A stretch of 64,000 nucleotides of DNA, taken from NCBI GenBank assembly GCA_963705105.1, contig CAVPIW010000008.1, positions 1-64,000 on the forward strand, read 5' to 3'. The notes under the pieces are model-generated. The model was not told the DNA's origin. It made no database searches and saw only the letters and a list, made by a program, of their open reading frames with translations. The stretch comes from an uncultured Nitrospiraceae bacterium. Lineage in GTDB: Bacteria > Nitrospirota > Thermodesulfovibrionia > Thermodesulfovibrionales > Dissulfurispiraceae. Position numbers and translations under genes: made by a program. Shown here in pieces: positions 2,058-58,643 of the stretch (its first letter is position 1; every line of letters begins with the position of its first letter).

Positions 2058-3254
2058 ATGAAGAAGCTGATTCTTGTGTTGCTCGTCGCATTCTGTATGG
2101 TCTTTCAGGGCGCTGCATGGGCCGATGACATCTGGTTCGGCGCCGCCCTGTCTCTCACCGGGAAGCTGGCGAAGGAAGGCAACCTCGTCAAAAACGGGTA
2201 CGAACTGTGGAAGGAGACGGTCAACAAGAAGGGCGGCATCAAGATTGCGAACAAACAATACAAGATCAACATCAAGTACTATGACGACGAGAGCGACCCG
2301 AACAGGGGCGCCAAGCTCGTCGAAAAGCTGATCACCGAAGACAAGATCAAGCTCATCCTCGGTCCTTACGGCAGTGAGTCCGTCTTCGCGACGAGCGCGA
2401 TCACCGAGAAATACGGCGCCCTCATGGTGCAGGGCGGAGCGGCCGCCGACAAACTGTACACACGGGGATTCAAAAACCTTTTCGGTATTTACACCGTCGC
2501 GACGGAGTACATGGATGACACACTGGAGATGCTGAAGGACAAGACACCGAAGCCGACGACCGTCGCGATCATATACTCCAACGACATCTTTTCGACCCAG
2601 GTCGCCCAGGGGGCGAAGGCCTCTGCGGAGAAACACGGATACAAGGTCGTGACGTATCAGGATTATCCGAAGGGCACTCAGGACCTCTCGACGGTGGTCG
2701 TCCAGATGAAGGCGAAGAACCCGGACATCATCCTCGGCTGCGGCCATTTCCAGGACACGATCATCATCGTGAAGCAGACAAAGGACTACAAGGTGAGCCC
2801 AAAGGCGCTCGCCTTTTCCGTCGGCCCGACCCTCCCCGATTTCGTCAACTCGCTGAAGGGTGACTCCGAGCATGTCTTCGGTTCGGCCCAGTGGACGATG
2901 ACCCTTCAGTACAAGGACCCCGTTTTCGGGAACAACCAGGATTTCGTGAAGGTCTACAAGGCCAGATTCAAAGAAGACCCGAACTACCATTCCGCCGGCG
3001 GGGCCGCTGCTGCCGTCATTTTCCAGCGGGCCATCGAAAAGGCCGGCACAAAGGACGACATCAACAAGGTGCGTGATGCCCTCCTGGCCTTCAATGAAGA
3101 AACCCTCTACGGGAAGATCAAGTTCGACAAGACCGGCAAGGTCGTGGGCAAAGGCATGCCGGTGATCCAGATCCAGAAGGGAGCCCAGAAGACTATCTAC
3201 CCGGAGAACGTGGCTGAAAGCAAGCTCGTCTACCCGAAGCCGGCCTGGAAATGA
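2058..3254 (+). CDS. Branched-chain amino acid-type ABC transporter substrate-binding protein
   Basis: Signal peptide MKKLILV; LSLTG, YYDDESDP and LILGPYGS motifs; GAGGAG RBS before ATG 2058. Confidence 0.9.
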   Translation: MKKLILVLLVAFCMVFQGAAWADDIWFGAALSLTGKLAKEGNLVKNGYELWKETVNKKGGIKIANKQYKINIKYYDDESDPNRGAKLVEKLITEDKIKLILGPYGSESVFATSAITEKYGALMVQGGAAADKLYTRGFKNLFGIYTVATEYMDDTLEMLKDKTPKPTTVAIIYSNDIFSTQVAQGAKASAEKHGYKVVTYQDYPKGTQDLSTVVVQMKAKNPDIILGCGHFQDTIIIVKQTKDYKVSPKALAFSVGPTLPDFVNSLKGDSEHVFGSAQWTMTLQYKDPVFGNNQDFVKVYKARFKEDPNYHSAGGAAAAVIFQRAIEKAGTKDDINKVRDALLAFNEETLYGKIKFDKTGKVVGKGMPVIQIQKGAQKTIYPENVAESKLVYPKPAWK

Positions 3255-47804: not shown

Positions 47805-48287
47805 ATGACGCGTTTCCTCATCATTGTCCTTTTGCTCTCCCTTTTATCCGGCTGCGCCCACGTCGTATCGCGGGAAATGCGGGACCGGAGCGATCAGGTC
47901 ACACCACTCGGCGAAATCTTCGGCGACCCTGCCCGTCACGAAGGCCGGATCGTGATTCTTGGCGGCATCATCATGAGCACGTGGAACACAGATGAGGGAA
48001 CATACGTGGAGGTCCTTCAGAAGCCCCTTGATTACCGGGGAAGGCCGACCCAGACGGACAGCACACTGGGAAGGTTCCTCGTGCTCCACAGGTCATACCT
48101 CGACACGGCGATATACGCGACCGGCAGGGAAGTGACCGCCGCCGGCGAAGTCATCGGCCGGAGGACGCTCCCCCTGGGGGAAATCGACTATCCCTATCTG
48201 CTCATCGAGGGCCGTGAGATCCATCTCCACTCCCCGGGAATGTCCTTCCCCGTCTTTTTCTCCATCGGCGTCGGGGTAGGTTTCTGA
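47805..48287 (+). CDS. Slp-family outer-membrane lipoprotein
   Basis: LSGC lipobox; VILGGII, EVLQKPLD..GRP and YLDTAIY..GREVT. Confidence 0.85.
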   Translation: MTRFLIIVLLLSLLSGCAHVVSREMRDRSDQVTPLGEIFGDPARHEGRIVILGGIIMSTWNTDEGTYVEVLQKPLDYRGRPTQTDSTLGRFLVLHRSYLDTAIYATGREVTAAGEVIGRRTLPLGEIDYPYLLIEGREIHLHSPGMSFPVFFSIGVGVGF

Positions 48288-48438
48288 ACTGCATCGCCAT
48301 CGGGCCGGATCATATTTTGATGACTCAATGACCAATGACTTGATGACTTAGATTAGACGGTGGCATCTTCACGCCGCTATTTCCCGGGATCTTTGTCAGC
48401 GACGAGGTTCATCGCCGGGGCCTGTTTGCCCCCGGGCC

Positions 48439-48467
48439 TTGACATTTCCCTGCCGATCTGGTAAAAA
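48439..48467 (+). promoter_or_regulatory. Sigma70 promoter
   Basis: TTGACA, 17 nt spacer, TAAAAA with an extended TG. Confidence 0.7.
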
Positions 48468-48473
48468 AGGAAC

Positions 48474-48557
48474 ATGATTCACGAAGGGAATATCTCCTTC
48501 GCCCTTGCCTTCTGGTACGGCTTCATTTTTCTGTCGTCTACCCCTGGCAAGGTTTGA
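48474..48557 (+). CDS. Aromatic-rich attenuator leader peptide (27 aa)
   Basis: MIHEGNISFALAFWYGFIFLSSTPGKV*, with 4 Phe, 1 Trp and 1 Tyr clustered, upstream of DAHP synthase. Confidence 0.8.
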   Translation: MIHEGNISFALAFWYGFIFLSSTPGKV

Positions 48558-48586
48558 ACGGAGAGTAAAAAAACCGAGCAACTGCG

Positions 48587-48623
48587 AAAGCCGAGGGTAG
48601 ACGGACGGGCCCCGGCTTTTTTT
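48587..48623 (+). terminator. Attenuator terminator
   Basis: AAAGCCG(A)GGG / CCCCGGCTTT stem followed by a T7 run; overlaps the antiterminator arm GGGTAGACG. Confidence 0.8.
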
Positions 48624-48695
48624 CGCATATGCCAATTGGAGAGGCCGGGTGCATAGCCCGGCCTCTCTCGTTTTTCGGACAATGAGGAGAAGAGC

Positions 48696-49715
48696 ATGAT
48701 CATCGTAATGAAGACAACGGCGACGAAACGGGAAAAGGAAGACGTGATCAGACGGATCAAAGAACTGGGGTATAAACCGCATGTCATACGCGGCACGACA
48801 CGGGATGTCATCGGCGCCGTCGGTGACGAGAGGGGCAAGGTCGTCCTCCAAACCATCGAATCGATGCACGGTGTCGAAAGCGTCGTGCCGATTCTCAAGC
48901 CCTATAAGCTTGCATCACGTGAAGTGCGGCGCGAAACGAGCATCGTGGAGATCACCAAGTCCGTTTCCATCGGCGGCAGGGAAATCATCGTTTTCGCAGG
49001 TCCCTGCGCCGTGGAGAGCGAGGGGCAGATCCTCGAAACGGCCAGGGCCGTGAAGGAGGCAGGCGCCCAGGTGTTCCGGGGCGGTGCTTACAAGCCGAGG
49101 ACGTCTCCGTACAGTTTCCAGGGGATGGGAGAGGAAGGGCTGAAGCTCCTCGCCAAGGCCCGCGAAGCGACGGGCATGCCTGTCATCACCGAAGTCGTCA
49201 ATCCGGAAACGGCGGAACTCGTGGCCGAGTATGCCGATGTTCTCCAGATCGGGACGAGGAACGCCCAGAACTTCGAACTCCTGAAACGCGTCGGCATGCT
49301 GAGAAAGCCCGTGCTCCTGAAACGGGGCATGTCCATGACCGTCCAGGAGTTGCTGATGAGCGCCGAGTATATCCTCAGCGAAGGCAACCAGTCGGTCATT
49401 CTCTGTGAACGGGGGATCAGGACCTTCGAGACGGCGACACGAAACACACTCGATCTTTCGGCGATCCCGGTCCTGAAGGAAAGGACCCACCTGCCCGTCG
49501 TCGTCGACCCCTCCCATGCGACGGGACATCACCGGTATGTGGCGCCCATGGCCTATGCCGCTGTCGCTGCAGGTGCGGACGGTCTCATGATCGAGGTGCA
49601 CCCCGATCCGGAACACGCCGCTTCGGACGGTCCCCAATCTTTGACGCCGAAGAATTTCGCAGAGGTGATGGCGAAACTGCGGTCCTTTGCGGAGGTGTCA
49701 GGCAGAAGCCTCTGA
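48696..49715 (+). CDS. aroF: DAHP synthase (type I-beta, with N-terminal regulatory domain)
   Basis: [48 protein letters not shown] and DPSHATG. Confidence 0.95.
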
Positions 49716-49716
49716 T

Positions 49717-50064
49717 CTAAGAGCCTTCCTCTATCGAAAAGAGCGGGTCCTCCAGCGCTTCGTTGCGGCAGACGGGACATCGTCCGGGTTTCTTCATGCG
49801 GTCCCTCTTCGTGAAAACGAAACCGCATTTCCTGCAGGCAGCGGCAATGACGACAAGCGGGTGTCCGGTCCTGCCCAGAGACCGGTGTATGTGCTCGAGG
49901 TGTTCATAGACCTCGCGCTCGGGCAGTCTCACGGCCGCGGATATCTCCCGCGCCGTCACGGCCCCCTGGTGAAGCAGGGCCATGATCTGTTGCCTGATCG
50001 TTTCGTGCCGCTCTGCCGGGACGGGCGGTTCCCTGTCTCTCTTTTTCACCGGACATAACCCCAT
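49717..50064 (-). CDS. HTH plus zinc-ribbon predicted transcriptional regulator
   Basis: TIRQQI...EREVYEHLEHI, CRKCGFVF and PGRCPVC; exact start uncertain. Confidence 0.8.
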   Translation of the reverse strand: MGLCPVKKRDREPPVPAERHETIRQQIMALLHQGAVTAREISAAVRLPEREVYEHLEHIHRSLGRTGHPLVVIAAACRKCGFVFTKRDRMKKPGRCPVCRNEALEDPLFSIEEGS

Positions 50065-55792: not shown

Positions 55793-55965
55793 GGATCTGC
55801 CCTCCTTTTTCGCTCCGTGTAGAATAGCGGGAAACAAGCATTAAACGACAGCATAAAAGGCGAATAACTGCAATCTCCGCATCGGTTTCATCCTTATTCG
55901 AAGTGTAGTATATCACGGGAAAAACTGCAATCATTTTCTCATACATCTATTTGCTATAATGTGTG

Positions 55966-56889
55966 ATGACTCTCTACCTCATAGACGGCAGCTCCTATAT
56001 CTATCGGGCCTATCACGCCATCAGGGGCCTGAGCAGCTCGAAGGGCTTTCCCACCAATGCGATCTTCGGATTCACGAACATGCTGATCAAGATCATCAGG
56101 GAGAAGCGGCCCGAAGCCCTCTGCATCGTCTTCGACTCGCCTGTCCCGACGGAAAGGCATAAGCTGTATGAACAGTACAAGGCCCAGAGACCGGAGACCC
56201 CCAATGACCTCGTCGTCCAGATCCCCCACATCAAGGAGATCATCCGGGCCTTCCGCGTGACAGCCATCGAGATGCCCGGATACGAGGCCGACGACATCAT
56301 CTGCACCGTCGCGCGCAGGGTCTCCGAGCAGGGCATGGACGTCTTCATCGTCAGCAGCGACAAGGACATGATGCAGATCGTCAGCGAGAGAGTTCGCATA
56401 TTCGATCCGATGAAGGATGTCGTCATAGACGAAAAAACGGTCCTGGAGCGTTTCGGCCTGCCGCCGGAACGATTGAACGAGCTCATGGCGCTCACGGGCG
56501 ACGCGATCGATAACATCCCCGGAGTGAAGGGGATCGGGGAGAAGACGGCGAAGGAGCTGCTTCAGAGCGCAGGGAGCATCGACGATCTCCTCGACAATCC
56601 GGGGGCCATCAGGAAAGAGAAACTCCGCGCGCTCATCACGGAAAACAGGGATATCATCAGGCTGAGCAGGACATTGGCGACTGTCAATGCCGACCTGCCC
56701 GTCCATATCGACCTGGAATCGCTGAAAGCCCGTGAGCCGGAATGGACTGAGATCCTCCGCCTTTTCAGGGAATTCGAATTCAGGAGCCTCATGAACCGCA
56801 TACCCGCCGTCAGGGGAGAGCCGCGGGGGACGTACAGGACCGTCATGACCAGGGAGGAGCTCAGGGAGCTCATCGGGAGGATGGGATGA
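55966..56889 (+). CDS. polA: DNA polymerase I, 5'-3' exonuclease part
   Basis: LIDGSSYIYRAYHA, YKAQR, GYEADD and GDAIDNIPGVKGIGEKTA; ends at a TGA overlapping the next ATG. Confidence 0.9.
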   Translation: MTLYLIDGSSYIYRAYHAIRGLSSSKGFPTNAIFGFTNMLIKIIREKRPEALCIVFDSPVPTERHKLYEQYKAQRPETPNDLVVQIPHIKEIIRAFRVTAIEMPGYEADDIICTVARRVSEQGMDVFIVSSDKDMMQIVSERVRIFDPMKDVVIDEKTVLERFGLPPERLNELMALTGDAIDNIPGVKGIGEKTAKELLQSAGSIDDLLDNPGAIRKEKLRALITENRDIIRLSRTLATVNADLPVHIDLESLKAREPEWTEILRLFREFEFRSLMNRIPAVRGEPRGTYRTVMTREELRELIGRMG

Positions 56890-58643
56890 TCCAGCCCGGT
56901 CTGTTCGGCGCCGGAGATGCCGGGACACTCCGCCGCGAAATCGCCCTCGACATCGTCGCCGCCGGCGCCGGTCCCATGGACGGCCGGATCATCGGGGTCG
57001 CCCTCTGCATGGAGCAGCACGTCGCCTCCTACATCCCTGTCCGCCATGCCCACGGCCCCAATGTTGACGATGCACTTGTCCTGCTGAAAGACATCTTTGA
57101 GGATGAGGCGATGGCGAAGATCGGCCACAATCTGAAGCAGGCCATCCTCCTTCTCAGGCAGGAGGGAATCGACATGAAAGGTGACCTGTATGACGCCATG
57201 GTGGCGGCTTATCTCCTCAACCCGAACACGCAGAGCCATGGCATCGAGGATGTGGCCCTTGAACACCTCGCCTGCAAGAAGCCGTCCGCCGCAGAAGTGC
57301 TCGGCAAGAGGACCTCCTGGGAGGATGTCGGGATTGATGAGGCAATGCAATTTGCCGCGGAAAACGCCGACATCTCTTTCGAACTGAAGAATGTCCTGTT
57401 CGATGCCTTGCGCCGGGAGGAGCTCGACCGGCTCTACTTCGATATTGAGATGCCCCTGATCCGCGTCCTCGCCGGCATGGAAGAGGCAGGGGTGAAGATC
57501 GACGTCAACCGGATCGCGCAGTTGTCCGAAGAGCTCGAACGGGGACTTGCGACGCTGCAGCAGACGATATACGACGTCGCGGGAGAGGAGTTCAACATCA
57601 ATTCCCCCCGCCAGCTCGGCGTCATCCTCTTCGACAGGATAGGACTGAAGCCTCTCAAGAAGACGAAGACCGGCTACTCCACAAGCGTCGAGGTGCTGGA
57701 GGAACTCGCCCTGAGCCATGATCTGCCGCGGGAGATCCTCTCGTACCGGACGCTGAACAAGCTGAAAACGACATACATCGATACCCTTCCCAGGCTCGTC
57801 AACAAGCGCACCGGCAGGATCCACACATCCTTCAACCAGACGGCCACCGCCACGGGCAGGCTGAGCAGCAGCGACCCGAACCTCCAGAACATCCCGATCC
57901 GAGGCGAATGGGGTCCGAAGATGAGGGAGATCTTCATCGCCGATGAGGGGTGCATGCTCCTGTCCGCCGATTACTCGCAGGTCGAGCTGCGCGTCCTTGC
58001 CCATGTAAGCGGCGACGAGGGTCTCGTCGAGGCCTTCAGGAGCGGTATCGACATCCATACGCGGACGGCTGCGGGGATCTTCGGCGTCCCTCGGGAGGAG
58101 GTGACACCCGACATGAGGAGAGCGGCGAAGGTCGTGAACTTCGGCATCGTCTACGGCATCACACCCTTCGGTCTCTCCGAAGCCCTGGGTATCGCTCCCG
58201 CCGAGGCCGGACAGTACATCACTCAGTACTTCGAAACGCACAGGGGGGTGAAACGGTACATCGACGAGACCGTTGACGCGGTGCGCCGGTCCGGCTTTGC
58301 CGTCACGCTGCTCGGCAGAAAGAGGCCGATCCCCGACATCGGCAGCGCCAATGCGACGGTGAGGCAGCAGGCCGAGCGGCTCGCTGTCAACACCCCCATC
58401 CAGGGCACCGCGGCGGACCTCATAAAGAAGGCGATGATCGACATAGGGAACACGATCCGGGACCGGAAGCTCAGGACGCGCATGGTGCTTCAGATCCATG
58501 ACGAGCTTCTCTTCGAAGGCCCCTCCGGTGAGATGGAGGAGGTGCGGGAGATCGTCAGGGAGGGCATGGAAAATGTGGTACCTCTTTCGGTTCCCCTGAG
58601 GGTCGACATCGGCTCGGGAAAAAACTGGGCCGAGGCGCATTGA
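56886..58643 (+). CDS. polA: DNA polymerase I, Klenow-like part
   Basis: TGRLSSSDPNLQNIP, ADYSQVELR, RRAAKVVNFGIVYG and QIHDEL. Confidence 0.92.
   Translation: MIQPGLFGAGDAGTLRREIALDIVAAGAGPMDGRIIGVALCMEQHVASYIPVRHAHGPNVDDALVLLKDIFEDEAMAKIGHNLKQAILLLRQEGIDMKGDLYDAMVAAYLLNPNTQSHGIEDVALEHLACKKPSAAEVLGKRTSWEDVGIDEAMQFAAENADISFELKNVLFDALRREELDRLYFDIEMPLIRVLAGMEEAGVKIDVNRIAQLSEELERGLATLQQTIYDVAGEEFNINSPRQLGVILFDRIGLKPLKKTKTGYSTSVEVLEELALSHDLPREILSYRTLNKLKTTYIDTLPRLVNKRTGRIHTSFNQTATATGRLSSSDPNLQNIPIRGEWGPKMREIFIADEGCMLLSADYSQVELRVLAHVSGDEGLVEAFRSGIDIHTRTAAGIFGVPREEVTPDMRRAAKVVNFGIVYGITPFGLSEALGIAPAEAGQYITQYFETHRGVKRYIDETVDAVRRSGFAVTLLGRKRPIPDIGSANATVRQQAERLAVNTPIQGTAADLIKKAMIDIGNTIRDRKLRTRMVLQIHDELLFEGPSGEMEEVREIVREGMENVVPLSVPLRVDIGSGKNWAEAH

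Follow-up and report, generated by a model that had tools for sequence, protein, structure and literature searches.

Control of transcription by a ribosome that stalls on a leader peptide is a textbook principle. The trpL and pheL leaders of Escherichia coli each respond to one amino acid, switch one terminator and begin translation of the leader peptide behind a Shine-Dalgarno (SD) sequence. Leaders of this kind are already known, and leaders rich in aromatic codons have been published for DAHP synthase genes of other lineages. Vitreschak 2004 and Lopatovskaya 2010 reportedly present predicted attenuators, which may include a prediction for Geobacter. In Corynebacterium glutamicum, the leader peptide aroR, with its aromatic codons, precedes the DAHP synthase gene aroF, and stalling raises transcription (Mentz 2013, PMC4046766); of its Phe-Tyr-Phe codons only Phe limitation acted, with no Tyr response according to the cited part of a summary of Neshat 2014 (PMC11802643). 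In the uORFC-13-1 motif of Acholeplasma, a predicted upstream ORF (uORF) containing Phe codons and a terminator precede aroF (Brewer 2021, PMC8632094), attenuators have been predicted before aromatic operons, including Thermus aroA-Iβ (PMC1173090), and tandem terminators occur in some rimP leaders (PMC2965389). The leader of hisL in E. coli and Salmonella folds into the stem-loops AB, CD and EF, and terminates by default when it is not translated (PMC10989985, PMC11805395). Finally, a conserved element of 192/272 nt, Gmet_R0069/GSUR082, lies 5′ of a DAHP synthase gene of the Thermotoga maritima type in several Geobacteraceae; it was listed as a predicted short RNA with a possible regulatory role, and the cited part of that paper gives neither leader peptide nor mechanism (Aklujkar 2009, PMC2700814).

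The locus described here lies in a window (the whole stretch of DNA analysed, 64,000 nt) from an uncultured Nitrospiraceae bacterium. An earlier note on this DNA had proposed a leaderless attenuator with Phe, Trp and Tyr codons upstream of a DAHP synthase gene, and its coordinates for the promoter, the ORF, the complementary segments and the U7 tract all proved correct when checked against the sequence. Judged from the sequence, the aroF leader is very probably a leader-peptide transcription attenuator: it combines an in-frame uORF rich in codons for products of the pathway, an intrinsic terminator and a mutually exclusive antiterminator whose 5′ arm a stall would free. The features are collected in Table 1, where the five mutually exclusive helices (protector, A:B, B:C, C:D and D:E) are named after arms that we labelled A–E.

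Table 1. Positions of the aroF leader elements and of aroF in the window; helices are predicted.
Feature	Coordinates	Strand	Description	Evidence
Sigma70-type promoter	48439..48467	+	-35 TTGACA, 17 nt, extended -10	sequence; conserved TTGAC-to-ATG distance
Leader ORF	48474..48557	+	27 codons, predicted leaderless	sequence, conservation, masked folding
Protector helix	48503..48552	+	48503-48509 with 48546-48552; inner 48514-48521 with 48533-48542	folding of truncated transcripts
Antiterminator A:B	48531..48608	+	48531-48548 with 48590-48608, 17 bp, -25.4 kcal/mol	folding; pair changes
Terminator 1, B:C hairpin	48586..48623	+	12 bp, -17.1, U7 tail 48617-48623	folding, sequence
Relay helix C:D	48611..48649	+	48611-48622 with 48638-48649, 12 bp, -17.1	folding; pair comparison
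Hairpin 2, D:E, terminator-like	48638..48676	+	48638-48668, 13 bp, -27.8, interrupted U-rich tail	strict scan, folding
aroF Shine-Dalgarno	48684..48689	+	GAGGAG, about 15 nt past hairpin 2 and not covered by it	sequence
aroF	48696..49715	+	full-length type I-beta DAHP synthase of 339 aa	profile matches and PDB 1rzm alignment

The -35 element (48439–48444) and the -10 element TAAAAA (48462–48467), with its extended -10 TG (48459–48460), leave only 6 nt between the -10 and the ATG at 48474, and transcription is predicted to start at or adjoining that position; a strict consensus scan did not call the promoter (0 found). The leader ORF ends at the TGA 48555–48557. Its sensing codons are predicted to be F9, F13, W14 and Y15, with F17 borderline and F19 non-sensing. 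The leader folds more stably than its shuffled versions (z = -3.99; as stable in 0 of 200). Rfam returned seven matches, the best at 20.6 bits and all under every gathering score; no T-box, riboswitch or Trp, Phe or His leader family thus matched at that level, and the seven included no leader family at all. A genome scan with a narrow pattern, a TTGAC-ATG leader with a terminator-like tail, gave 7 hits among 254 candidates, of which only the aroF leader resembled a leader of an amino-acid gene.

The downstream gene is indeed a DAHP synthase gene, as had been claimed: its product lies over the cut-offs of PRK08673 (514.9 bits) and TIGR01361 (404.4 bits), the type I-beta enzyme. It has the T. 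maritima-type N-terminal part, and an aroF orthologue aligns from residue 1 to PDB 1rzm. The nearest named copies, at 78–81% identity, come from Nitrospirota and Geobacterales records, which by itself would make a Nitrospirota host probable. On the 5′ side, a gene for a Slp-family lipoprotein ends at 48287, and between it and the promoter lie short imperfect repeats (48318–48352; atgact/gacttga units), similar to tracts that follow hisC in some relatives. The 3′ neighbour of aroF is on the opposite strand; this convergent ORF (49717–50064, minus strand) encodes a small protein that looks like a helix-turn-helix protein and has a zinc ribbon (CxxC...CxxC) at its C terminus, and a strict scan called no terminator between the two. 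Further downstream, at 55963–58643, translations inspected by eye show DNA polymerase I as two overlapping ORFs, one 5′-3′ exonuclease-like (55963–56889) and one polymerase-like (56886–58643). In three RNA runs (10 were found; small shares of 0.07–0.25, contigs only), reads reached parts of aroF but not its leader. Matches to PF00793 in the genome are confined to aroF and kdsA, and PF01474 has none. We nevertheless rejected as unproven the idea that aroF is the sole DAHP synthase gene of the genome, the pheA-hisC operon being cut by the end of contig C14. This pair (G000:C14:316557-318261 = L209:3058-4762) runs off the contig, and a second aroF, which stands 3′ of hisC in relatives, may be unassembled.

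The leader accompanies aroF among its close orthologues. We searched 40 relatives and fetched 160 further loci; in all, 190 loci had an aroF match, and 172 of them were unique with at least 300 nt upstream. The earlier note had proposed aligning the upstream regions of relatives, and both the aromatic codons and the helices, with compensatory changes, turned out to be conserved. At 68% aroF identity or more, 54 of 58 unique loci have a leader ORF with at least five F/W/Y codons in 12, as compared with 75 of 2320 shuffled controls (3%); the loci are kin and non-independent, so that shuffle counts overstate significance. The carriers belong to Nitrospirota, Geobacterales and Desulfuromonadales. 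The four misses comprise a weaker leader (L112), a leader with a probable GTG start (L039), a locus that has lost the ORF and arm B (L117) and one without a leader (L046). The proportion falls to 7 of 14 loci at 62–68% identity and to 19 of 100 at lower identity, and the ORF is found in none of the 16 aroF paralogues that stand behind hisC inside an operon (L015–L030). Among the 40 relatives, five carry an aroF copy of at least 70% identity, each of them behind an F/W/Y-rich uORF, and the leader ORF was also present in 14 of 14 further genomes (three of which repeat earlier loci). At L117, some 150 nt before aroF, the ORF and arm B are gone and arms C, D and E are kept; this would leave C:D unopposed, as a natural constitutive variant or through an assembly error.

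What is conserved within the leader is its reading frame and its geometry. In frame, W and Y make up 4.9% and 8.3% of the codons; the corresponding values are 0.5% and 0.3% for frame +1 and 2.4% and 3.0% for frame +2. Outside the aromatic block the peptide varies freely. The Trp codon stands exactly 23 nt 5′ of the core of arm A in 39 of 45 scored leaders. TTGAC was found in range in 39 of 55 leaders, and the leader ATG lies 35–38 nt downstream of it in 36–37 of these 39 (of two leaders tallied at 38 nt, one also has an ATG at 35). No SD match precedes the ORF in 53 of 55; the exceptions are L002, whose match is too distant from its ATG, and L006. Spacing and missing SD both fit the predicted leaderless start of the leader ORF. 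Locus L006 differs in its surroundings: its leader lies behind a tRNA-Pro gene (2686–2759, minus strand), has an SD, only 14 codons and a single terminator. An SD behind a tRNA gene is what one would expect if the other leaders start leaderless.

In a FastTree phylogeny of 171 proteins, one clade of 57 (SH 97) holds 56 leaders. Within the tree, the Geobacteraceae copies stand amid Nitrospirota-type copies and apart from those of Desulfuromonadales, which suggests, as far as sequences can tell, that aroF and its leader were transferred together between lineages. Other leaders are found before more distant aroF copies. An F/W/Y leader with a single U-tailed terminator occurs at L085, L091, L103, L106, L168, L169, L186, L187, L188, L134 and L010; the carriers include Desulfomonilaceae and Planctomycetota and are scattered over the aroF tree, so that these leaders probably have several origins. 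A more distant aroF of a same-order genome (L007) has, at 175 nt upstream, a leader with few aromatic codons and two U-tailed hairpins. Phe/Tyr-rich uORFs also precede aroF on archaeal contigs (L093, L100, L101 and L144, 150–210 nt upstream, and L104). Three of these contigs are labelled Methanosarcinales, yet their aroF groups with copies from Woesearchaeota/Nanoarchaeota and the neighbouring genes look archaeal. No clear terminator pair was seen in these five leaders, which are candidates for an archaeal counterpart of attenuation.

Folding of the window leader is consistent with a switch. The segment CGTCTACCC (48535–48543) is exactly complementary to GGGTAGACG (48595–48603), as the earlier note had seen, but the predicted antiterminator extends beyond these 9 bp to the 17 bp of A:B. 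The claimed U7-tailed terminator between the leader ORF and aroF is recovered by folding as the predicted B:C hairpin; the strict scan did not list it because its 10-nt loop exceeds the limit of 8. Two elements had been overlooked: the predicted protector helix, which in truncated transcripts masks arm A when no ribosome is present, and a second terminator-like hairpin, which the strict scan does list. The unmasked transcript, taken through the U7 tail, folds into the protector helix and terminator 1. With a ribosome mask at codons 8–17 the antiterminator forms (P about 0.98), and with the mask at codon 19 or later the terminator forms. The sensing range originally given as codons 9–19 therefore holds for codons of about 8–17 but not for codon 19, since the antiterminator arm already lies under a ribosome stalled at F19; F17 fails as well if the longest of the footprints tried is assumed.

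The same behaviour is seen across the family. Folding with and without a masked ribosome, one of the checks that the earlier note had suggested, was extended to 54 leaders (L006 was left out). In transcripts cut before arm C, a ribosome at the Trp codon lets A:B form in 53 of 54 leaders, and one placed three codons later does so again in 53 of 54, as compared with 7 of 54 at the last Phe codon, none at the stop codon and 17 without a ribosome. At equilibrium, a fully made terminator 1 prevails in 32 of the 54 leaders even with the ribosome at Trp, so that co-transcriptional kinetics would be needed for the switch in these 32. The window leader itself switches cleanly under masking. On 32 aligned leaders of the 55, A:B and C:D together are 85% paired, with 20 cells changed on both sides, a level as high in none of 500 shuffles, and B:C and D:E are 87% paired; five Desulfuromonadales rows of alignment A1 are shifted at arm B, which makes the A:B and B:C counts rough. 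Of 50 leaders, 42 have five or more U within 8 nt in the tail of terminator 1. Taken together, conservation, covariation and masked folding strongly support the predicted leader-peptide attenuator.

We consider it likely, from the modelled folds, that aroF is governed by a ribosome-stalling attenuator in which a predicted leaderless ORF would signal a lack of charged Phe- and Trp-tRNA, and probably Tyr-tRNA, by disabling two terminator-like hairpins arranged in series. Without a ribosome, the protector helix would hide arm A and terminator 1 would form. A ribosome that has moved past codons 18–19 would cover A, so that B:C forms and transcription stops at U7, and a polymerase leaking past terminator 1 would meet D:E as a second stop. 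By contrast, a ribosome stalled at codons 8–17 would melt the protector and leave arm A free to form A:B; the freed arm C would then capture D on its emergence, D:E would not form in time and aroF would be transcribed. In this scheme we infer the transcription start site, translation of the leader ORF, termination at both hairpins and the amino acids that count. Control of aroF translation by hairpin 2 is not favoured, its SD lying about 15 nt beyond that hairpin in the window and the aroF start 26–81 nt past the stem in relatives.

The role of the second hairpin is where a simpler account competes. The relay helix C:D joins the 3′ arm of terminator 1 to the 5′ arm of hairpin 2, and since arm D can pair with freed arm C, one stall likely disables both terminators. 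On balance, and on the strength of modelling, we favour hairpin 2 as a terminator relayed in this way. An ordinary single-terminator attenuator, with hairpin 2 as a stability or pause element and C:D as a by-product of similar stems, for instance after a duplication, seems unlikely to us, although several results fit it. In the full leader of the window no helix is more stable than D:E, which prevails at equilibrium in all states; once E is complete it beats C:D, across a barrier of only 7.4 kcal/mol. Hairpin 2 follows terminator 1 in 51 of 55 leaders (L006, L040 and L043 lack it, and that of L005 is degenerate), and some second tails are weak (8 of 50 with fewer than five U in 8 nt), that of the window being poor. 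With the ribosome at the stop codon, C:D is present at equilibrium in 20 of 50 leaders, the window included (0.88), as against 34 of 50 when stalled, and its presence in unstalled leaders weakens the idea of hairpin 2 as a fail-safe. On the other hand, second hairpins reach five or more U in 8 nt just as often as first hairpins, in 42 of 50 leaders (in all counts of 50, L139 was dropped, and L002 and L004 were kept although mis-anchored at C). Tails are clean in L125, L174, L070, L072 and L065, and in L133 the first hairpin has no U tail and the second has seven U. Arm D moreover follows the changes of C from one stem type to another: C:D duplexes average -18.0 kcal/mol with their own partner, -12.6 with partners of other stem types (the own one being better in 49 of 50) and -10.3 with 84 further terminator-like hairpins from the genome. 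The advantage is small among leaders of one stem type (-18.0 versus -17.2; own better in 32 of 50), and in 12 hand-chosen leaders of several stem types the own D gave -14.4 and the others -11.5, own ranking 5th–9th for four of them. Distant leaders with other stems (L125, L174, L070, L065 and L052) keep the coupling. In 26 of 47 leaders terminator 1 contains a mispair at one particular position of arm C; this position pairs with D in 43 of 47, and the C:D pair there switches between C-G (27) and G-C (12). C:D alone is 90.6% paired on the 32 aligned leaders, with both sides changed in three of nine pairs, and the window transcript ending at 48650 folds as A:B plus C:D. A Geobacteraceae subgroup (L066, L135, L137, L139, L140, L142 and L146) combines an arm C made up of a run of C with a weak terminator 1 (P about 0.5); there, hairpin 2 may be the main stop.

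Which amino acids are sensed is a separate matter. An attenuator that senses mainly Phe and Trp, its Tyr codons being incidental to a U-rich, Phe-rich stretch, is a possibility that we regard as somewhat doubtful, if less so than the single terminator. It would fit the presence of Phe in the sensing windows of all 55 leaders (at least three in 49), as compared with Tyr in 39 (at least two in 13), and all three residues in 37; Trp is present in 52 of 55, but this figure is circular, the windows being centred on Trp. Tyr has no fixed place, following Trp in only 14 of 47 leaders, and the window leader has a single Tyr codon, like its single Trp codon; the C. glutamicum aroR leader, as the summary cited above reports, responds to Phe and not to Tyr. 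Yet Tyr accounts for 10.2% of sensing-window codons where shuffling of these letters yields 3.9%, Leu for 0.9% where it yields 17.2%, and both Tyr codons are used (TAC 64, TAT 56). Tyr sensing is accordingly the weakest part of the three-amino-acid reading; integration of all three tRNAs by one leader is plausible, and a measurable response to each of the three amino acids is, by a narrow measure, what we would expect. Two further explanations do away with the sensing ORF altogether. A translation-independent RNA switch (a riboswitch, T-box or protein-binding leader), the ORF being an accident of pyrimidine-rich sequence, could appeal to the cited part of the 2009 Geobacter paper, in which a probably identical element appears only as a predicted short RNA (PMC2700814); it is very improbable, given that no Rfam family reaches its gathering score and that the start codon, the frame, the Trp codon and the spacing from Trp to arm A are conserved amid otherwise variable letters. 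If anything still less probable is that the leader peptide itself is the functional product, a small membrane or regulatory protein. The peptide is hydrophobic, and trans-acting leader peptides such as peTrpL of Sinorhizobium meliloti have been described (PMC12612679), but its length ranges from 14 to 36 codons, its ends are not conserved and its C-terminal residues follow the RNA helix.

In its protector, antiterminator and terminator logic, the ribosome-stalling attenuator of aroF resembles trpL and pheL of E. coli. In trpL the sensing codons end about 15–20 nt before the antiterminator arm, a spacing like that of the aroF leader, which differs from both in its mixed codons, its second hairpin and its predicted leaderless start. 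The alternative pairings BC and DE of hisL correspond to A:B and C:D. As in hisL, the predicted off state has three sequential hairpins (protector, B:C and D:E) and the on state two alternative helices. The parts of the hisL accounts cited above, however, describe uridines only after the last hairpin, whereas most aroF leaders have U tails on the middle and the last one, and the aroF leader is predicted to be leaderless and mixes three codon types instead of a run of His codons. It would thus work like hisL without being a member of the hisL type, both hairpins being U-tailed and the codons F/W/Y. With the C. glutamicum aroR leader, as described in the cited sources, it has in common an aromatic leader peptide before a DAHP synthase gene, a likeness of function only; here there are 4–8 Phe codons, a near-invariant Trp, variable Tyr, a type I-beta enzyme and two terminator-like hairpins. 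The uORFC-13-1 motif, with 24 representatives (Acholeplasma and environmental), a ribosome-binding site and one terminator, is set apart by its description in the cited part of PMC8632094.

The earlier note knew of no such leader for this type of gene. The literature searched, which covered few subscription papers, yielded no account from these lineages of such an aroF leader peptide or of two terminators coupled in a relay, but the Geobacter element listed in 2009 without a mechanism, in the cited part of PMC2700814, is probably identical. Gmet_R0069/GSUR082 probably belongs to the aroF leader family because its length fits and the other paralogue of genome G041 has about 150 nt upstream without such an ORF; the two DAHP synthase paralogues are about 51% and 50% identical to that of T. 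maritima (hand count).

It is tempting to speculate that the aroF leader is a leaderless three-amino-acid sensor in which a domino of helices switches two intrinsic terminators at once, and which travels with one aroF clade through Nitrospirota and Desulfobacterota, its stems rewritten and its coupling kept; we hold this full version only tentatively, as somewhat short of an even prospect. The question bears on the capacity of one leader to integrate three tRNAs (Tyr was ignored by the one aroF leader that has been tested) and on that of a single stall to switch two terminators. If true, it would provide a mechanism for an element that has been listed without one since 2009, and a natural attenuator of two stages, whose dynamic range would exceed that of the single-terminator design of the textbooks. 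It would also show how these anaerobes set the flux through the shikimate pathway at the level of transcription.
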